From Lachnospiraceae bacterium (GTDB lineage Bacteria > Bacillota > Clostridia > Lachnospirales > Lachnospiraceae): a stretch of 64,000 nt of DNA. The stretch is taken from NCBI GenBank assembly GCA_017624235.1, contig JAGANL010000022.1, positions 605 through 64,604 on the forward strand. Direction: 5' to 3'. The notes under the pieces are model-generated. The model saw only the letters and a list, made by a program, of their open reading frames with translations. It was not told the DNA's origin and ran no database searches. A program made the translations under genes and the position numbers. Below, piece by piece: positions 33,143-60,487 of the stretch (the first letter of the stretch is position 1; each line of letters opens with the position of its first letter).

Positions 33143-34087
33143 CTACCACCGTTTCCAATACCGCCTATTCATGCTGCACCAGTACACAAATCTCTTGGGC
33201 AGCCTGCGATAGCATTTTCCCAAACGGTATCCGATGAATTTAAAGCCACTCGTCACAAACAGTGCCGGAATCTGACAAACAGCCTTTTGTGCCTTCAAAT
33301 ACCGAACCGTCTCTTTGATCATACGTATTCCCTCTGACTCAGACCGGACACCTTCAAATATCTCCGGGTGATCCGCCTGCGATACACCCAGATCGAAGTT
33401 CCGGCGAAACTGCTCCATATTCGTATAATTATGCGAATGTACCACTCTGGCCTGCGGCACATAGGCAATCCGATAGCCGGCCTGTACCGCTCTGGCCGCA
33501 TAAATCATATCCTCATTGAAAATCGTATGACGGATGAATCCGCCCAATTTCACAAAAACATCCTTTTTGTAGGCCGCACACGCATTGGAGCAAAAATAGG
33601 TCTTAATGCCAAGCCTCTCCAAATCCTCTGCCCCCTTGACACATGCCTGCTCCGGATAGTTAAATTCTCTGGTAAAGCGCTCCAAAATATGACAGTCTTC
33701 TGCCGGGAGCTGTCTGCCGTATGCCACTGCTGTCTGTTCCTGCTCCAGTCCGTTCAAAAGGGCTTCCATCAAACGGTCGTCCTCCGGTACCGCATCCTGT
33801 GTCATACAAACAAAAATCTCTGCATCCGAACGCTTTACTCCTTCATTTCGGGTCCTGCCATGGTCAAATTCCCGGGCTGACAAATGATAGACCTCCACAT
33901 TCCGGTATTTTTCCAGAAAATTCGTCCCGTAGGTCAGCCTTTCAAAATACTTTTCCTCCGTATTCATCACGATGATACGTGATACCGGAACCGTCTGCTT
34001 CGACAGCTTTTCGATCAACTGCAGAAACTTCCGGTCCGGCTTGCTTGTTGGGATGATCACATCCACCTTTTTTTCTGTTCTGTCCAC
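33143..34087 (-). CDS. Family-2 glycosyltransferase (rhamnosyltransferase-like)
   Basis: 314 aa. VDVIIPTSKPDR… N-terminal GT-A fold; TQDAVPEDD acidic motif. Confidence 0.8.
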   Translation of the reverse strand: MDRTEKKVDVIIPTSKPDRKFLQLIEKLSKQTVPVSRIIVMNTEEKYFERLTYGTNFLEKYRNVEVYHLSAREFDHGRTRNEGVKRSDAEIFVCMTQDAVPEDDRLMEALLNGLEQEQTAVAYGRQLPAEDCHILERFTREFNYPEQACVKGAEDLERLGIKTYFCSNACAAYKKDVFVKLGGFIRHTIFNEDMIYAARAVQAGYRIAYVPQARVVHSHNYTNMEQFRRNFDLGVSQADHPEIFEGVRSESEGIRMIKETVRYLKAQKAVCQIPALFVTSGFKFIGYRLGKCYRRLPKRFVYWCSMNRRYWKRW

Positions 34088-34122
34088 TAAAAATCTCGCC
34101 TGCTTATTTTTATTCTGTTTAC

Positions 34123-35526
34123 CTATTCACCGGTAGGTGCATCATCATTGGGTGCAGTTCCGACATAGGCCTTGGTATCATTCTCTACCTTCGCGCTACA
34201 TTCCTTTACGGTCGAAGAGGTTGTGTAATCTGCATCAAACAGGAACTTATGCAGCTTTACAACGTTCTTCTCTAACGACATCGGAATGACACAGCTTCCC
34301 TTGCTTCCGATATTTCCGGTTGCTCTGGACTCCTCGAACGGGAAGCCTTCGCTTTCGGTCACATTGTACTTGGCAATATCCTTCAGTACATCCGCAATTT
34401 CCGTTACAGTCAGGTTTGTTGCTACATTCGGGAATACGCTGTCCAGAATCTTATTCAGGGTAGCCGGATCTGCCTTCTTAGCCTTCTCCGCCATTGCCAT
34501 TAACACCCTTCTCTGACGTTCTGCACGTGCAAAATCATTACCGACATAACGGATACGGCAATATGCAGTCGCCTGAAGTCCGTTTAAGTTCTGCAGTCCT
34601 GCATGAGTAACCGGTGTATAATCCACACCTTCCTTAGCTGTAAAGTTGATACCGTCCTCGCTCGTTCCGACCATACTGATCTGATAGCTGTTGAGATGCT
34701 CGATTTCCGCCTCTGTCACATCGATTTCTACACCGCCCAGAGCATCAATCGTATCCGTAACACCCTTGAAGCCTACCGTAACATAGTTGGTGATATCCAT
34801 ATCCAGGTTCATATTGAGCATATTCATTGCCTGCTCCGGCCCGCCCTTTGCATAAGCGGAATTACATTTATTATAGCTGTCATTACCCAGATTCAGGTAC
34901 GTATCACGGAATACGCTGACTACCTTGACCTCTCCGGTATCCTGATTGATGGAAGCGATCATGATCGTATCGGTACGATTACCCTTTCCGAGCGAATTAT
35001 CTCTGGAGTCTACACCAAACAGCGCAATATTCCGATACCCCTTCATGGCCTCGTTCTGCTCTACGGTATCATTGATGACAATGTCCTCTTCCTTGATATC
35101 AAAACGGGTCGTCTGTGTACCCTTCATGACAAAATATAATACCATCAGCATAATCACAAGCACTACAATTTCTACAATAAACAAAATCGTGCGCTTTCTC
35201 TTCTTCTGTGCCCTCGCCCTTGCAGAATTTGGCCTTTTGCCTCCGTTCTGGGGTCTTCTGCCCGAAGAGGAACCATTGCCGCGACCGGAAGCTGCTCTCA
35301 TCCTCTCCTGATTCTCATACTGGGAAGGTCTGCTGCTCTGCCTGCGCGCCGTTTCCCGATACTCCTGTCCCCCTACGCTTCTGCGCGGTGCACTCCCGTT
35401 TCTGGATGCTGCCGCATTTCTGGAGGGCGCTCCGTTTCTGGAAGAAGCACTGCTTCTGGAAGGCGCACTGCTTCTACGCGGCGCACCGTTTCGTGACTGT
35501 GACGTATTGCCTGTTCTCTTATCCAT
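34123..35526 (-). CDS. LytR-CpsA-Psr (LCP) family glycopolymer ligase
   Basis: 467 aa. Basic Ser/Arg-rich cytoplasmic tail with SRNGAP-type repeats, a TM helix, then FGVDSR…NRTDTIMIASIN…VSVFRDTY. Confidence 0.88.
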   Translation of the reverse strand: MDKRTGNTSQSRNGAPRRSSAPSRSSASSRNGAPSRNAAASRNGSAPRRSVGGQEYRETARRQSSRPSQYENQERMRAASGRGNGSSSGRRPQNGGKRPNSARARAQKKRKRTILFIVEIVVLVIMLMVLYFVMKGTQTTRFDIKEEDIVINDTVEQNEAMKGYRNIALFGVDSRDNSLGKGNRTDTIMIASINQDTGEVKVVSVFRDTYLNLGNDSYNKCNSAYAKGGPEQAMNMLNMNLDMDITNYVTVGFKGVTDTIDALGGVEIDVTEAEIEHLNSYQISMVGTSEDGINFTAKEGVDYTPVTHAGLQNLNGLQATAYCRIRYVGNDFARAERQRRVLMAMAEKAKKADPATLNKILDSVFPNVATNLTVTEIADVLKDIAKYNVTESEGFPFEESRATGNIGSKGSCVIPMSLEKNVVKLHKFLFDADYTTSSTVKECSAKVENDTKAYVGTAPNDDAPTGE

Positions 35527-35572
35527 CTCTTTTTCGATCTCTCCTTACTCTCTTGTCCTTTTCGCAACTGTA

Positions 35573-36982
35573 TCAGTAGGCATTTTTATTGATAAACCCT
35601 TTGAATATTGTCAAAAACATAATCTTAATATCAAAACCAAAGGTCCAGTTTTCGATGTAATACAAATCGTACTCAACCCTCTTTTTAATCGAGGTATCAC
35701 CGCGGTAGCCATTGATCTGTGCCCAGCCGGTCAGTCCCGGACGCACCTGATGCTTTACCATGTAACGCGGAATTTCTTCCTTGAACCGCTCTACAAAAAG
35801 AGGTCTTTCCGGTCTGGGGCCAACCAGACTCATATCACCCTTTAAAATATTGAATAACTGCGGAAACTCATCGATACTCGTCCTCCGCAAAAACTTTCCA
35901 ATCTTTGTCACACGGGGATCGTCACGCACCGTCCATGCCTGCTTCTCCTCCGACTCCTTTTGCAGCTCCATCGTCCTGAACTTGTACATGAAAAAGGGCT
36001 TGTTGTGTAGCCCTACCCTCTCCTGCTTAAAAATCACCGGGCCGGGGCTGCTCATTTTGACCAGCACTGCCACGATCAGCATAATCGGAGATACCACGAT
36101 CAGTCCGCACAGGGAACCGACGATATCCATACACCGCTTTGCCACCCAGTTTAAGGTATTGGTCAGCGGCACGTAACGGATATTGATGACCGGCAGCCCC
36201 ATCAGATCTTCCGTATAAGGCTTGCTCGGAATCAGACTGTTATAATCCGGGATAAACTTGGTATGCACACCGGACTTTTCACACAGATCCACAATTTCCT
36301 CCAGTCTGCCGTAATCCTGCAGGGAAAGCGTAATCGCAATTTCATCCAGCTTATTTTCCGGCAGGATATAAAGCAGATTGTCTATCCTTCCCAGCACCTT
36401 GACTCCCTTATAAACGGTACCGCGCGGCACTCTGTCATCCAAAATACCCCGTACCACATATCCCCACTGTGCATTGGAATTAATCCGGTTGATATATTCC
36501 TCCGCCGCACGGGAATAACCGACTAACAGAATATACTTTACGTTATAGCCCTTGGCACGGAAATAATGCAGAGTGTTCCGAACCACCTGTCTGACAATGG
36601 TCGTAAGCACAATATTGACCACGCAGAACATAAAAATCAGGGATCTGGAAAAATCAGGCTGATTGATCAGATACAAAACACTTAAAAAAGCCACCGTTCC
36701 TACCACATTTGCCTTTACGATTCCGAAGAATTCGTATTTGCGCCTTGTGGCACGCTTCGGTGTATACATTTCAAAAATATAATACAGAATCACATATCCC
36801 GGCACAATAAAATAAAGGGCACTAAAATACACTTCCATTTCCAGAACCCCTACGCCAGCCTTCTTTTCTGCCAATATACTTTCAAATTTCAAATACCAGG
36901 ACAGCATATAAGCACATGCTGTAACAACCGCATCCATCAGCAGGTGCAGGCGGTTGAAAATCTTCTGGTTATCTTTTATCAT
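35573..36982 (-). CDS. Polyprenyl-phosphate glycosyl-1-phosphate transferase (WcaJ/CpsE-type priming enzyme)
   Basis: 469 aa. N-terminal TM bundle and C-terminal bacterial sugar-transferase domain (…LVGPRPERP…RPGLTGWAQING…). Confidence 0.9.
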   Translation of the reverse strand: MIKDNQKIFNRLHLLMDAVVTACAYMLSWYLKFESILAEKKAGVGVLEMEVYFSALYFIVPGYVILYYIFEMYTPKRATRRKYEFFGIVKANVVGTVAFLSVLYLINQPDFSRSLIFMFCVVNIVLTTIVRQVVRNTLHYFRAKGYNVKYILLVGYSRAAEEYINRINSNAQWGYVVRGILDDRVPRGTVYKGVKVLGRIDNLLYILPENKLDEIAITLSLQDYGRLEEIVDLCEKSGVHTKFIPDYNSLIPSKPYTEDLMGLPVINIRYVPLTNTLNWVAKRCMDIVGSLCGLIVVSPIMLIVAVLVKMSSPGPVIFKQERVGLHNKPFFMYKFRTMELQKESEEKQAWTVRDDPRVTKIGKFLRRTSIDEFPQLFNILKGDMSLVGPRPERPLFVERFKEEIPRYMVKHQVRPGLTGWAQINGYRGDTSIKKRVEYDLYYIENWTFGFDIKIMFLTIFKGFINKNAY

Positions 36983-37054
36983 AGTACTTCACCTGATTTT
37001 CCATAAGCATGTCCAAACCGTTGAAATTGTTGATTTGGCATATGCACACAGAAT

Positions 37055-37083
37055 ATTGTACCTTATTCCAACGGAAAGTACAA
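37055..37083 (-). promoter_or_regulatory. Predicted sigma-A promoter of the priming transferase / LCP operon
   Basis: Minus strand reads TTGTAC, a 17 nt spacer, then TACAAT. An A-rich tract lies upstream, and 72 nt separate the -10 from the start codon. Confidence 0.5.
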
Positions 37084-37127
37084 CTTAAACTTTTTTCTTT
37101 CCTGTTTTTTTACTTTTTAGAGGGGGC

Positions 37128-37436
37128 GCATCCCGGAGAATCACTGGCACTGCGCTAGCCCGGGCTGTCCCATGTCGTCTGCCTGCCATCCTTCGAAGAC
37201 GACAGACGGACTGGGGTTTTCTAAATAGCGCAGGGAAAACCTGAACAGGCGGTCGGGGCGGATTCCATGTGCATCCATGCACAGGAATCCTAAAATCGGC
37301 ATCCTTGCCGATTTTACCCTGGGTATTGAATGCGCTATTAAGAAAACACGCAGTCCTTCTGTAGGTCTTCGAAGGATGGCCGGCAGGCGGCATGGGACGC
37401 CCGGGATAGCGCAGTGCCAGTGATTCTCCGGGATGC
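37128..37436. repeat. Foldback element copy A: 309-nt imperfect palindrome with a two-hairpin core
   Basis: Outer arms 37128-37200 / 37365-37436 form 68 Watson-Crick pairs, 2 T-G pairs, 2 mismatches and 1 bulge; the first 30 bp are perfect. Inner arms are 37202-37232 / 37331-37362. Core hairpins are 37261-37289 and 37291-37316. Confidence 0.85.
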
Positions 37437-37452
37437 TTGTAATGACAGTCTG

Positions 37453-38499
37453 CTAGTGGAAAAATCCCAGTCTGCGTACTATGTTCCACCAGAGCATGCA
37501 CTGGATTCGCACGTAATGAAGCAGATGGTTCAAGCGGAACGGTATCTTATGTGCCCGGCCTTCTTTGGAAAGGCACAGGGTGATTCCCTGTCCAAGGCCC
37601 TTTAGATAGGGACCGGCCAAGTGCTTTTTTGCAAAATAGAGCAGCTTGATGAAATGACCGCACAGCAGGAACGGTAAATTCAGGAGAAGCTGTAGAAGCG
37701 GCATATTCTTGTAGGCCAGGTACACGCTGTTTCTGGCAGATAATCTCACCTTGAAGGGATTGTGTGCAGATCCTGTCGTTGCACTCCCGGCGTGTAAAAC
37801 GGCGGCTGACGGCTCATACTGATTCCGATAGCCGTGAATCTGTGCACGGTATGCCACATCGATATCCTCCAGATAAGCAAAATGGTTCTCATCCAAAAGA
37901 CCAAGCTGTTCAAAGACCTCTCTCCGGTAGATTGCCGCACCGCCGCAGGCTGCAAAAATTTCTGCAGGCTCCGCATAATCCGAGGCCGATCCTCCCTTGC
38001 CTCTGGCAAAGGCCCATCCGAGTGCACAGTAGAAGTCTCCGGCATCGTCCATTTTCTCCGGCTCTTTCATGGACAGCATTTTGGCACTGACAGAAAACAG
38101 CTTCCTGTCCGACGCAATCGTCCGGGTCAGACTGCTTACAAAGCCGGGCAGCACTTCCGTATCGTTGTTCAGCAGAAGAACATACGGCGTTTTTGCCTCC
38201 CGGATTCCGATATTGACCGCACCGCAGAAGCCGGTATTATGATCCAGTCGAATCTGGTGCAGCCCAATGTGTGGAAAATGCTCAGCCCGCTCTTTCTTCA
38301 GCTTCTCCACCACCTGTTCACTTCCGTCCGAAGAACCATTGTCAACGACCAGAATGTCAAATAAGGCATGAAGCTTATCTGACTCCATGCCGTTTTCTTC
38401 CTTACTCTCCCCTTTTATCAGGGAGCATATACACTTTTCCAGATATTGAATCCCGTTATAGTTCGGAATAATGATTGTTGTCTCTTTCATAGGCTCCAT
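37453..38499 (-). CDS. Family-2 glycosyltransferase
   Basis: 348 aa. TIIIPNYNG…VVDNGSSDGS…NNDTEV motifs. Confidence 0.85.
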   Translation of the reverse strand: MEPMKETTIIIPNYNGIQYLEKCICSLIKGESKEENGMESDKLHALFDILVVDNGSSDGSEQVVEKLKKERAEHFPHIGLHQIRLDHNTGFCGAVNIGIREAKTPYVLLLNNDTEVLPGFVSSLTRTIASDRKLFSVSAKMLSMKEPEKMDDAGDFYCALGWAFARGKGGSASDYAEPAEIFAACGGAAIYRREVFEQLGLLDENHFAYLEDIDVAYRAQIHGYRNQYEPSAAVLHAGSATTGSAHNPFKVRLSARNSVYLAYKNMPLLQLLLNLPFLLCGHFIKLLYFAKKHLAGPYLKGLGQGITLCLSKEGRAHKIPFRLNHLLHYVRIQCMLWWNIVRRLGFFH

Positions 38500-39905
38500 T
38501 CTTTTCGCGGATCATACAGAAGCTTCATGCCGTTTTGACGAAGCTTTTTTCCAAACAAAAGGCTGATGCTTTTCAGCTTTTCTTCTCCGATTCCCCGCTC
38601 TACAAGCTCCTTCAGAAACTGTGCCTGTCCTTCTGCACCCAGCTCTCCCACAAGGAAATTGACCTGTTTCTCTGCAAGCTCCGTCCCGCATGTTTCCCGG
38701 AAGGCTTCCTGCAAAAAGGGTACCGCTTCCTTTCGGATCCGTACAAAACGTATGTCCAATGCCTCCACATCCTGCTGCAGAACCGCCCGGTGCATATAAC
38801 CGGAAAACTGCTTCGGCATCCCTCCATAATAAAGGGTTCCGTCCTCATGCAGCGCTCCGCCTGCCACCCGGCCTCTTTGAAGTAACCTGCCGCCCACCGC
38901 ACCGACATCCCTTCTCTGCTGCAATACACCGTCTGCATATTCCACCCGGTAAAAGCCCAGATGCTTTTCATGACGCATACGAACCTTCAGGCCGATATCG
39001 GCACAGTAGTCATTGACCGCTTTTCTTCCGGCCTCATAGGCATACATTTTGCTTCCCGGATTTTCTGCAGTGGACTGCTCATGACAACGCCAGTGATAAA
39101 GCACCTTAGGTACATGGACAACGGGAGCGCCTTCCGACTTTCTTAACACCTGTAAAATCAAATCATAATCCTGCGCTCCGTCATATAAGGACCGGAAGCC
39201 CGTTTCTTTCAACTGTCCGGTTCGCACCATCAAAAAGTGGCAGATATAATTATTGGACAGAATCAGGTCATAATTAAAATCCACCTTCCTGTGCGGCTCA
39301 TAAAAACGCTCTCCCGCTCCGTCCGTCTTGTCCTCATCCGAATAGAGCATGACCGGCTCTACGCCCTTCTGCCGCTCCGCATACAGGGCTGCTGCCATCT
39401 CATACAGGGCATCCGCCGTCAAAAGGTCATCATGGTCGAGCAATCCGGTATACTCTCCGCACACTTCCTTTAAGCCTGCATTGGAATTGCCGGAAATACC
39501 AAGATTCTCAGACAGTCTCAGATAGCGTATTCTCTCATCCCCGCTCTGCGCTACCACCTGCTCCACCACATCCGAAGCAGAGGCGTCTGCGATGACCAGT
39601 TCAAACCACCTCCAGGTCTGCGCGAGAACACTTTCCAGCAGGGCCTGCATATAGCAGGCTTTGGTTTCATAAGCCGGAACAAGAATACTGAAGGTTACCG
39701 GCATTTTCTCATGCAGCTGATCTGCTTCCTTTTCCTGCCCCTGCCTTTCCTCCGGTGTCAGCGGATGCCACTCATAATCATCTCTTTTTTTCTGTAACAG
39801 CCGCTCCCATGCGGCATACATACCGCTCGACACACCGTTTTTCTGAATATACTTCACCGTACGGCGTACATTGGCAATATTGCAAATATTACTGATTTTT
39901 CCCAT
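38487..39905 (-). CDS. Glycosyltransferase (GT2 domain plus C-terminal extension)
   Basis: 472 aa. FSILVPAYETKACYMQALLESVLAQT…VIADASASD…DHDDLL. Confidence 0.8.
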   Translation of the reverse strand: MGKISNICNIANVRRTVKYIQKNGVSSGMYAAWERLLQKKRDDYEWHPLTPEERQGQEKEADQLHEKMPVTFSILVPAYETKACYMQALLESVLAQTWRWFELVIADASASDVVEQVVAQSGDERIRYLRLSENLGISGNSNAGLKEVCGEYTGLLDHDDLLTADALYEMAAALYAERQKGVEPVMLYSDEDKTDGAGERFYEPHRKVDFNYDLILSNNYICHFLMVRTGQLKETGFRSLYDGAQDYDLILQVLRKSEGAPVVHVPKVLYHWRCHEQSTAENPGSKMYAYEAGRKAVNDYCADIGLKVRMRHEKHLGFYRVEYADGVLQQRRDVGAVGGRLLQRGRVAGGALHEDGTLYYGGMPKQFSGYMHRAVLQQDVEALDIRFVRIRKEAVPFLQEAFRETCGTELAEKQVNFLVGELGAEGQAQFLKELVERGIGEEKLKSISLLFGKKLRQNGMKLLYDPRKEWSL

Positions 39906-39949
39906 CCTCTGATATTCTCCTGATGCACTCGTATAACGGTTCTGTTATA

Positions 39950-40624
39950 CTAGAAGTTTACTTCTCCGTCATGCGCAATCAGTGACACTCCTGTCACATC
40001 CTTTACTGCGGATACAGCCTTTAAAAGCTCATTCTGCTCCTTTACCTTCAGTTCAACAATAAAATCCGTTTTCCCACCGGAGGTATTTCTGGATTTGACA
40101 CTATAATGCCTGGTAAACTGTCCAATCTGCTTTAAGACCTCTTCCTCGCATTCCAGACTGCCTGCATTGACTACCAGCAGCATGGAAGCCATCCCGACCG
40201 GTGTCAGCTCCAGTGCAAACAGCCCCACCGTAATGACCAGTCCCGCTATGACGGCAATTTCAAACATACCTGCTCCACAGATAATGCCCGTACTGATTGC
40301 CCAGAACAGAAAGACCAGATCCTTCGGATCCTTCACCGCTGTACGGAAACGGATAATGGAAAGAGCTCCCACCATACCAAGCGAAATGACAAGGTTTGAC
40401 TGCATCGCCAGAATAATGCTGGCCGTCACGACCGTAATCAGTGCCAGCGAAATATTAAAGCTCTTATTATAGAAGGTCTTTTTGGCAGAAATATAATAGA
40501 TTGCAAAAATATAGAGAGCTAACAGTGTCGTAATTCCCAGTACCGTTACAATCTGCGCCATATTGATATTATTGCCCGAAAATCCTTCCAGTACGGATTT
40601 TTTTATCATATCCTGAAATGTCAT
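39950..40624 (-). CDS. DUF4956-family membrane protein (partner of VTC-domain proteins)
   Basis: 224 aa, about 4 TM helices, conserved …SIIRFRTAVKDPKDLVFLFWAI… block. 1-nt gap to the upstream VTC gene. Confidence 0.7.
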   Translation of the reverse strand: MTFQDMIKKSVLEGFSGNNINMAQIVTVLGITTLLALYIFAIYYISAKKTFYNKSFNISLALITVVTASIILAMQSNLVISLGMVGALSIIRFRTAVKDPKDLVFLFWAISTGIICGAGMFEIAVIAGLVITVGLFALELTPVGMASMLLVVNAGSLECEEEVLKQIGQFTRHYSVKSRNTSGGKTDFIVELKVKEQNELLKAVSAVKDVTGVSLIAHDGEVNF

Positions 40625-40625
40625 G

Positions 40626-41342
40626 TCAATTTACCTCGTTATACTTTCTGCATAAATAATATTTGGAAAAATTTGTCTGCCGCAAACGCCCCAGCTCCAG
40701 CTGCTTTTTCAGATAGGAGGGCAGAAATTCATCATATTTGACCTCCAGCACATGCTGCCCTGCCGGAAGAATCGGATACTCCCTGATATCCTTTTCAAAA
40801 AAACGTTCAAACTGAACCGACGATGTAATGTTCTGATCAAAGGTAATGCGTACATTCCCTTCCCGGCATACAAAGGGAACCCTCTCATACGTAACGATGA
40901 CCGCAGGCCTCAACAGCTTTGTATACATCAGTACCGCAAACTGCTGCAGCAACGGCGGATACCCGGAAAGCCTGTCGGCGTCTATGGAAAGCGGTATTCC
41001 CCTTAAAATCTGCTCTGCCTGCTCTTTGGTCAGCTCTGCCGACTCTTTGTGGGTCATTCCGTTTTTCTTGCTTTTTTTCTCTAAGGTAATCCTCCGATCG
41101 CTTGCCTCATAGATACGGATGCGGAACTTCGCCCGCGGATCCTCTCCGGATTCATTCTGATAAAAGCACGTATTCCGGTAATCATCCAGATAGACGCTCC
41201 GAATCTCATAGCTGCCCCGCTCCGAAGCATGAACATCCCTTTCAACCAGTCCCTCCAGCCTGTTCTTAAGAACCGCCAGTTCCCCGGCCGAAACCAGATA
41301 TTTGTATTCATGCCGGTACTGCAATTTTTCTTCCAATGCCAT
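40626..41342 (-). CDS. VTC-domain (triphosphate-tunnel, polyphosphate-polymerase-like) protein
   Basis: 238 aa. RHEYKY (ExK tunnel motif), FRIRIY, LEKKSK and LEVKYD are alternating charged beta-strands typical of CYTH/VTC tunnels. Confidence 0.7.
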   Translation of the reverse strand: MALEEKLQYRHEYKYLVSAGELAVLKNRLEGLVERDVHASERGSYEIRSVYLDDYRNTCFYQNESGEDPRAKFRIRIYEASDRRITLEKKSKKNGMTHKESAELTKEQAEQILRGIPLSIDADRLSGYPPLLQQFAVLMYTKLLRPAVIVTYERVPFVCREGNVRITFDQNITSSVQFERFFEKDIREYPILPAGQHVLEVKYDEFLPSYLKKQLELGRLRQTNFSKYYLCRKYNEVN

Positions 41343-60160: not shown

Positions 60161-60214
60161 GGTATTTCGGGGATTTCCATTTTTTGCTTCTTTATTATCA
60201 TGTGGCATCGCAGC

Positions 60215-60487
60215 CATTATCCGGTCGGCGGTGGTTGGGGCTCCGGTCCGCCGCAGAAAATGTCAGACCTGCAGGTGGAGTGAGAGTTTTCTTAATGGAG
60301 CTTTCGAAAAAGCAGGGGAAAATCGGCACGGATGCCGATTTTAGGATTTCACGTGCAAGGATGCACATGAAAGCCGACCCGAACGGTTGTCGCATCCTTC
60401 CTGCTCCATTTAGAAAACTCCAATCCACATGCGGTCTGACATTTTCTGCTGCGGACCGGAGCCCCAACCACCGCCGACCGGATAATG
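60215..60487. repeat. Foldback element copy B: 273-nt imperfect palindrome, core homologous to copy A but in inverted orientation
   Basis: Outer arms 60215-60269 / 60433-60487 pair at 54 of 55 positions. Inner arms are 60270-60301 / 60403-60432. Core hairpins are 60319-60342 and 60347-60372. Confidence 0.85.

Follow-up and report, generated by a model that had tools for sequence, protein, structure and literature searches.

The window analysed here, a stretch of 64,000 nucleotides of Lachnospiraceae DNA, carries on its minus strand (33143–41342) a conserved gene order that is common to Kineothrix-like Lachnospiraceae (loci L126–L136), with genes for a VTC-domain protein, a DUF4956 protein, two family-2 glycosyltransferases (GT2), an undecaprenyl-phosphate sugar transferase, a LytR-CpsA-Psr protein and a further GT2. 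The promoter before the sugar-transferase gene is also kept across the Kineothrix-like group, as TTGTAC-17-TA(A/C)AAT. Because it is conserved in relatives without the element described below, we regard it as the host's promoter and not the element's.

The spacer between the GT2 gene and this promoter is occupied by a foldback, element A (Table 1). A preliminary description had reported a rod-like palindrome of 309 nt there, 16 nt from the GT2 stop codon and 44 nt from the -35 hexamer; the repeat finder and RNA folding confirmed the foldback and both distances hold. Its arms were resolved by the repeat finder into three nested pairs, the outermost at 37128–37165/37399–37436 (38 nt, 97%), the middle at 37160–37200/37365–37405 (41 nt, 85%) and the inner forming the inner helix of Table 1 (26 nt, 81%). 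A direct count of the outer arms gave the same 68 Watson-Crick pairs and two T.G pairs (37175/37390 and 37178/37387) as had been reported, with mismatches G.A at 37158/37406 and T.C at 37184/37381; near 37166 the register slips by 1 nt. The single A-A mismatch described in the segment GTTTTCT(A/T)AAT was located at 37223/37340; on the minus strand it is a U.U mismatch of the inner helix that is conserved in the family. The two hairpins described in the core both exist. The sense strand, as given by the Rfam match below, is the minus strand, which is that of both flanking genes. As RNA, the element folded at -238 kcal/mol on the plus strand (z = -21.6) and at -222 kcal/mol on the minus strand (z = -24.6), and 0 of 100 shuffles were as good in either case. 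The minus-strand ORF of 138 aa at 37085–37501 had been dismissed as an artefact of the palindrome, and it has no homologue among 5.8 billion proteins; the view that element A is not a classic insertion sequence was likewise borne out.

Table 1. Features of element A, its flanks and its sister copy in the window (the 5' and 3' sides follow the sense strand).
Feature	Position	Strand	Remarks
Foldback element A, whole	37128..37436 (309 nt)	- (sense, per Rfam strand)	Defined by palindrome, fold and strand of the Rfam match
5' outer arm of element A	37364..37436	-	Outside the Rfam model; sequence unrelated to the arms of copy B
3' outer arm of element A	37128..37200	-	Pairs with 37364-37436
RF01731 match in element A	37201..37363	-	Model positions 1-168 of 168
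Inner helix, 5' strand (GUUUUCUUAAUAGCGC...)	37322..37347	-	Conserved; pairs with 37216-37241
Inner helix, 3' strand (...GCGCUAUUUAGAAAAC)	37216..37241	-	Conserved
Head hairpin 1 (AAAAUCGGCA-AGGA-UGCCGAUUUU)	37292..37315	-	GGA loop within CAAGGAUG; loop bases 37301-37306
Head hairpin 2 (GGAUUCCUGUGC-AUGGAU-GCACAUGGAAUCC)	37260..37290	-	GGA loop within CAUGGAUG, 37273-37278
C-rich, G-poor stretch (GCCCCCUCU...)	37113..37127	-	Directly 3' of the rod on the sense strand, outside the palindrome
Promoter of the sugar-transferase gene	37055..37083	-	-35 TTGTAC 37078-37083, 17-nt spacer, -10 TACAAT 37055-37060
Upstream family-2 glycosyltransferase (GT2) gene	37453..38499	-	Stop codon 37453-37455
Downstream undecaprenyl-phosphate sugar transferase gene (Bac_transf)	35573..36982	-	LytR-CpsA-Psr gene next
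Sister copy B, 273-nt foldback	60215..60487	+	Outer arms 60215-60269/60433-60487, 54/55 paired

Independent short-read contigs with the same flanking genes end within the arms of element A, and an independent scaffold from the same species reads across the sister copy; element A is therefore not an assembly artefact. Both copies are present on contigs of the same species as the window. Three metagenome contigs from this species (L120:1–30, L121:1–20 and L138:1–30) stop within the outer arms of A or B. Since such foldbacks break short-read assemblies, the family is probably under-counted in metagenome bins.

Covariance models from Rfam identified element A as a full-length, above-threshold member of RF01731 (TwoAYGGAY), with a score of 81.9 bits against a gathering score of 43 (E = 8e-14) over the full model. 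The preliminary description had been unable to assign the element to any RNA family and had itself named a database hit to a known family as grounds for refutation; with the Rfam match, that claim falls. Weinberg et al. (2010; PMC2864571) described TwoAYGGAY from Clostridia and gut metagenomes, in a paper whose supplement calls its P1 stem “often very large”, and binding of CsrA by both loops was proposed in 2014 (PMC4333381). Later papers call the family unexplored, and its function is unknown in the literature. In Rfam it belongs to clan CL00106. Element A has the large closing P1 stem around both hairpins; its loop 2 (AUGGAU) fits AYGGAY, and its loop 1 (AAGGAU) has A, not Y, at position 2. 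Among 84 relatives the base at this point was U in 34, C in 31, A in 12 and G in 7, so the name is stricter than the family. A flanking protein of element A is closest to Lachnospiraceae (Kineothrix, JLR.KK008), which fits the Clostridia and gut host range of TwoAYGGAY.

Element A shares with the published TwoAYGGAY the two terminal GGA loops, the large closing P1 and a host among the gut Clostridia. The published RNA measures 168 nt with a P1 of ~24 bp, whereas in element A and most relatives the helix runs a further 30–125 bp; terminal repeats, target duplications, empty sites and a C-rich 3' flank were found here and are not in the published description. Element A itself is one more copy of a known, functionally orphan family, and what appears to be new lies in features of the family as a whole. 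The searchable literature holds no account of long rods, terminal repeats, 7- or 8-bp target duplications or empty sites for TwoAYGGAY, nor of Watson-Crick-only compensation or a polar C-rich flank.

Element A had been presented as a single oddity, but a second copy, copy B, lies 23 kb away in the same window (Table 1), with an RF01731 match of 77 bits on the plus strand at 60268–60435. Copies A and B align only across the ~170 nt of the Rfam model. The head of B is ~90% identical to that of A, and the outer arms (55 bp in B) are unrelated in sequence, yet nearly perfectly paired in both copies. Copy B is flanked by a divergent gene for a GH25/Big_2 cell-wall protein on one side and by a 96-aa gene on the other, and a promoter-like site (TTTCCA-16-TATCAT, 60174–60201) ends 13 nt before it. 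A candidate target duplication of copy B, ATCGCAGC/ATTGCAGC, found 50 nt past the rod with 7/8 positions matching, was rejected as not significant given the number of comparisons.

Relatives were found with a degenerate pattern of the head, which in the window matches A and B alone. When one genome per species was scanned, this pattern gave at least 119 stretches; among the matches listed, 106 had a properly paired hairpin 1, and nearly all of these related loci belong to Lachnospiraceae. Rod length was taken from arm-to-arm alignment (left flank against the reverse complement of the right flank); counts of enclosing pairs in folds of 500-nt windows inflate it. In the 86 loci with full flanks the total foldback had a median of 275 nt (interquartile range 230–312, maximum 426), against 168 nt for the model, and a median of 44 pairs per locus lay beyond the Rfam model. 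The layout common to the family is a head of ~100 nt on arms that are paired over their whole length, giving ~215–430 nt in all. The 5' arm of the rod was G+T-rich in 76 of 82 loci (G 0.31, C 0.18), and because the rod is a palindrome this holds on both strands; such a composition would lower self-pairing inside each arm. At one locus (L012:3082–3887) an apparent palindrome of 805 nt surrounds the head, with 255 matched pairs and many mismatches, and may be a nested or duplicated element.

TwoAYGGAY elements were intergenic in every locus examined. Orientation relative to the upstream and downstream genes showed no preference and no excess of co-oriented copies (++ 23, +- 13, -+ 16 and -- 19), and some copies lie between divergent genes, between convergent genes, or on the strand opposite to both neighbours. 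The neighbours at 87 loci were housekeeping genes, almost never common to two loci, and the 546 neighbouring ORFs included no recurrent linked gene (transposase, reverse transcriptase, RAYT, flagellar or csrA). A single csrA match among these ORFs lay in a chance locus. There is no csrA gene in the 64-kb window, and no other copy with A-type arms was seen among the 87 loci. Scanned by consensus, A, B and 81 loci had sigma-70-like sites no more often on the sense than on the antisense side, giving no sign of a promoter belonging to the element, and a T-run after the rod was absent in 80 of 81 loci. Phage and plasmid collections gave no match by blastn; four pattern matches in 2.9 million viral contigs were set aside as chance because hairpin 1 is unpaired in them. 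At least seven near-identical TwoAYGGAY copies occurred in one assembly. In one Lachnospiraceae assembly two elements stand side by side in opposite orientation, ~300 nt apart (L001:5130–6040).

Both window copies have empty sites in related genomes. Element A is absent from the orthologous GT2-to-transferase spacer of relatives whose transferase is 93%, 83% or 79% identical, where the spacer measures 200 nt, 107 or 208 nt, and 72 nt, respectively, and holds no TwoAYGGAY; in the window it measures 470 nt. These relatives keep the order VTC-DUF4956-GT2-GT2-sugar transferase-LytR and the transferase promoter. Copy B is absent in relatives at 77% and 73%, with spacers of 228–241 nt against ~602 nt. 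As these comparisons are between species, insertion of A and B is inferred by parsimony. Two contigs that encode an identical transferase protein (L131:3793–4000 and L130:3894–4000) differ by an insert of ~100 nt in the same GT2-to-transferase spacer; this insert holds a different hairpin (CACATGAAAACCAA...TTGGTTTTCATTTG), and palindromic elements may land in this spacer repeatedly.

Perfect direct repeats (8/8) bounded the rod in 7 of 81 loci, compared with 0.3% in a null in which flanks from different loci were paired, and they define three terminus types (GTAACNGTTCAGCC..., GGATTCGGGTGTCAAAAG... and GTTACTTTTCACA...). A metagenome scan with the second terminus type (termini GATTCGGGTGTCAAAAG...) returned palindromic elements of 36–315 nt, in which flank identity was 0.76 at a duplication length of 7 (16/37 perfect) and ~0.3 at every other length. 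The members of 301–315 nt are archetypal TwoAYGGAY, scoring 93–133 bits on RF01731. The archetypal elements, at 110–133 bits, have conserved terminal repeats and 7-bp target duplications, and other subfamilies have duplications of 8 bp. Elements of 36–298 nt with the same termini and with target duplications have no TwoAYGGAY head; those of 191–298 nt have other cores, without a match in Rfam.

The termini GATTCGGGTGTCAAAAG/CTTTTGACACCCGAATC bound a palindromic series with different cores and 7-bp duplications of a CTATAAr-like target (metagenome loci L145–L264; examples are L162:5081–5152, L176:6511–6589, L185:3830–4059 and L182:3340–3637), in which the TwoAYGGAY head occurs only in the members of ~314 nt. 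The searchable literature seems to contain no description of this wider MITE family. A further arrangement was seen at L056:2700–3300 and its paralogues L003, L040, L057 and L089, where a rod of 225 nt is nested in a unit of 322 nt. In this unit an asymmetric internal loop (5' side 47 nt; 3' side 23 nt and C-rich) is followed by an outer inverted repeat of 14 bp, GTAACAGTTCAGCC, and there is a duplication of 8 bp (ACTAATTC).

Neither A nor B showed a target-site duplication, and the termini of both fall outside the three types; we therefore infer the transposed origin of these two copies from their empty sites and their family membership. An autonomous partner with the same termini was found in none of the ~240 fetched loci, which held no solitary termini either. 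Apparent partner “elements” of 0.9–1.0 kb proved to be false partner matches enclosing ordinary genes. The hallmarks of a MITE that are present are the inverted-repeat arms, the lack of coding capacity, the dispersed copies (two in 64 kb) and presence or absence at orthologous sites. Compared across about 200 relatives, the TwoAYGGAY family behaves as a MITE-like, non-autonomous transposable element.

Pairing in the arms was analysed in an alignment of 18 elements with the second terminus type, for which 84 consensus pairs were predicted. Paired cells made up 93.2%, against 37–46% with the partners slid, and 45 of the 84 pairs showed changes on both sides (in 211 cells); no shuffle out of 500 came up to these figures. 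Conservation of sequence is seen in the terminal 17 bp; the remaining rod covaries. Orthologous copies in three Acetatifactor species differ in blocks of ~10 positions in both arms at once, and their unique flanks are visibly far more alike than the arms are. G.U pairs were no commoner than A.C, at 186 versus 179 in the arm alignments, 35 versus 29 in the 18-element alignment and 10 versus 9 in ~1,700 pairs of the head hairpins. For helices that are selected as RNA, G.U as rare as A.C is atypical. Compensation by Watson-Crick pairs only is not the usual trace of selection acting on one RNA strand; it fits palindromes that are maintained as DNA, or elements in which both strands must fold. The two T.G pairs of element A had been described as wobbles in a plus-strand RNA only, but the family strand is the minus strand, on which they are A.C, and since G.U equals A.C across the family the two pairs carry no strand information.

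Other features of the element are polar. The conserved head comprises a pair of hairpins whose loops read CAnGGAUG, the second of them with a tandem G.A, and an inner helix containing the U.U mismatch. Strand specificity is seen in the GGA loops and in the tandem G.A, the latter with 93 purine-purine mismatches in the head hairpins and 39 in the 18-element alignment. The 3' flank on the sense strand has 11.1 C per 40 nt versus 6.3 G (p = 7e-9); a C excess of at least 8 followed the rod in 27 of 83 loci and was seen on the other side in 4 of 83. CCUCC-like motifs averaged 0.76 per locus in the C-rich sense 3' flank versus 0.11 on the other side.

The head is conserved across at least three terminus types. 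Going by the elements that share termini, the head is dispensable for transposition; since same-termini elements with other cores have also transposed, it would be a cargo under selection of its own. The consensus site of CsrA/RsmE is reportedly (A/U)CANGGANG(U/A), and the two GGA hairpin loops, CAAGGAUG and CAUGGAUG, fit it by sequence match. CsrA proteins of Lachnospiraceae are functional (PMC13443453). If transcribed, the head RNA would most likely be a candidate binder of one CsrA dimer, the best available activity because the loops match the optimal site and Lachnospiraceae CsrA is functional.

Several known systems resemble parts of this element. The CsrA-sequestering sRNAs of the CsrB/RsmZ type (clan CL00106) likewise have GGA motifs in short hairpin loops matching the high-affinity CsrA/RsmE site. 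TwoAYGGAY differs from them in having only two predicted sites (one dimer) set in a duplex of 100–150 bp, and in being scattered in many copies that bear the hallmarks of transposons, with neither a promoter nor a terminator of their own detected. Correia/NEMIS of Neisseria, ERIC of Enterobacteria, and RUP and BOX of Streptococcus pneumoniae are MITEs that fold into RNA hairpins. TwoAYGGAY is like these in being a non-coding intergenic palindrome of 100–300 bp with terminal inverted repeats and target duplications, inserting either way and able to form long hairpins in host mRNAs. They duplicate TA or other short targets, whereas TwoAYGGAY duplicates 7 bp and 8 bp; unlike them, it has its greatest conservation in the central head, several terminus types, and arms that covary over their full length. 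REP/REPIN elements are also dispersed, intergenic, hairpin-forming repeats. REPINs have conserved arms, a variable loop, no target duplication and a linked RAYT transposase gene, and none of these traits was seen in TwoAYGGAY. Intrinsic terminators share with element A a stable hairpin downstream of a stop codon, but element A has no conserved U-tract and is ~10 times larger, and relatives that share the gene order lack it.

We favour, at a probability of roughly 0.6, the reading that element A is a TwoAYGGAY copy belonging to a MITE-like foldback family whose head is a cargo with a putative CsrA site. The unit would be moved by a transposase acting in trans, and the head would be a selected cargo that works as a single strand. 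As no promoter of its own was found, the sense strand of element A may be made by read-through from the GT2 operon, and the missing co-oriented excess among the relatives would be unexpected if read-through RNA were the selected product. Once transcribed, the sense strand would form a long interrupted duplex capped by two adjacent hairpins, each with an optimal CsrA/RsmE site. Such a head could bind one CsrA dimer, and thereby either titrate CsrA or place the host transcript under the control of CsrA and a double-strand RNase, for which the long duplex would be a natural substrate. The C-rich tail after the rod might pair, in anti-Shine-Dalgarno fashion, with ribosome-binding sites, or might load Rho.

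A more far-reaching version, to which we give tentative credence only, makes TwoAYGGAY, for 16 years an orphan RNA motif, the cargo of foldback MITEs and a mobile post-transcriptional regulatory cassette in Lachnospiraceae. Here at least two transposition specificities (7-bp and 8-bp duplications, three terminus types) would have spread one module, in which a long duplex carries a pair of CsrA-type hairpins and a C-rich tail comes after it. The complementarity of the arms would be kept at the DNA level, for example through correction in an extruded or single-stranded hairpin, and not through selection on RNA; with such correction compensations would always be Watson-Crick and G.U would not be favoured.

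The lack of any excess of G.U over A.C, with compensation always from one Watson-Crick pair to another, would equally suit purely selfish DNA, in which palindrome and head are both needed for propagation, for example by way of a hairpin or cruciform intermediate recognised by a transposase or host factor, and any transcript is incidental. In favour of this reading are the absence of an orientation preference, the lack of signals for a promoter or terminator, the terminal repeats with their target duplications, and the G+T richness of the 5' arm on both strands. We nevertheless consider it unlikely, since headless elements that share these termini still have intact target duplications and thus show that transposition does not need the head, and the head is kept across at least three terminus types; the conserved tandem G.A and GGA loops are meaningful on one strand only, and the C-rich flank is strand-specific too. 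Another reading is a free-standing gene for a CsrA-sequestering sRNA, with its own promoter, inherited vertically or by duplication and with arms under RNA selection. Membership of clan CL00106 and the published proposal of CsrA binding (PMC4333381) point that way, as do two GGA hairpins spaced to suit one CsrA dimer, the strong covariation, the promoter-like site 13 nt upstream of copy B, and a trio of Acetatifactor loci that keeps the element at the same site. Such a gene is hard to square with target-site duplications and conserved termini, with empty orthologous sites for both window copies, with scattered, non-syntenic sites and with at least seven near-identical copies in one assembly; no promoter or terminator is found family-wide, G.U pairs are not favoured, and we regard this account as quite improbable.

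The position of element A between a stop codon and the next promoter, the great stability of its hairpin and the UUUU after hairpin 1 could also suggest a device at the operon boundary, in which the rod and a hairpin with A4/T4 flanks act as a bidirectional intrinsic terminator or insulator between the two glycopolymer operons; the preliminary description had likened the hairpin to such a terminator. That hairpin is hairpin 1 of the family. Its A4/T4 “flanks” lie in the paired stem; in relatives they covary to other bases and are not kept as A or T runs, and a terminator scan found nothing in element A. The lack of a T-run after the rod in 80 of 81 loci, the relatives with the same operon order and no element, and the copies that lie between divergent or convergent genes or antisense to both neighbours also count against a boundary function, which we think very improbable indeed.

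The interest of element A lies at the level of its family, whose function has been unknown since 2010 and whose mobile nature appears to be undescribed in the searchable literature. TwoAYGGAY elements break short-read assemblies of abundant gut Lachnospiraceae. We know of no CsrA-antagonist RNA in the Firmicutes, and the proposal of a CsrA decoy, the only one made for its function, becomes testable in a concrete form, that of many dispersed copies with one dimer site each. Watson-Crick-only compensation over 100–150 bp offers a useful case for separating the maintenance of palindromes at the DNA level from that at the RNA level. Should TwoAYGGAY prove to be a transposable foldback repeat, its present listing as a cis-regulatory RNA or a small-RNA gene would have to be changed.
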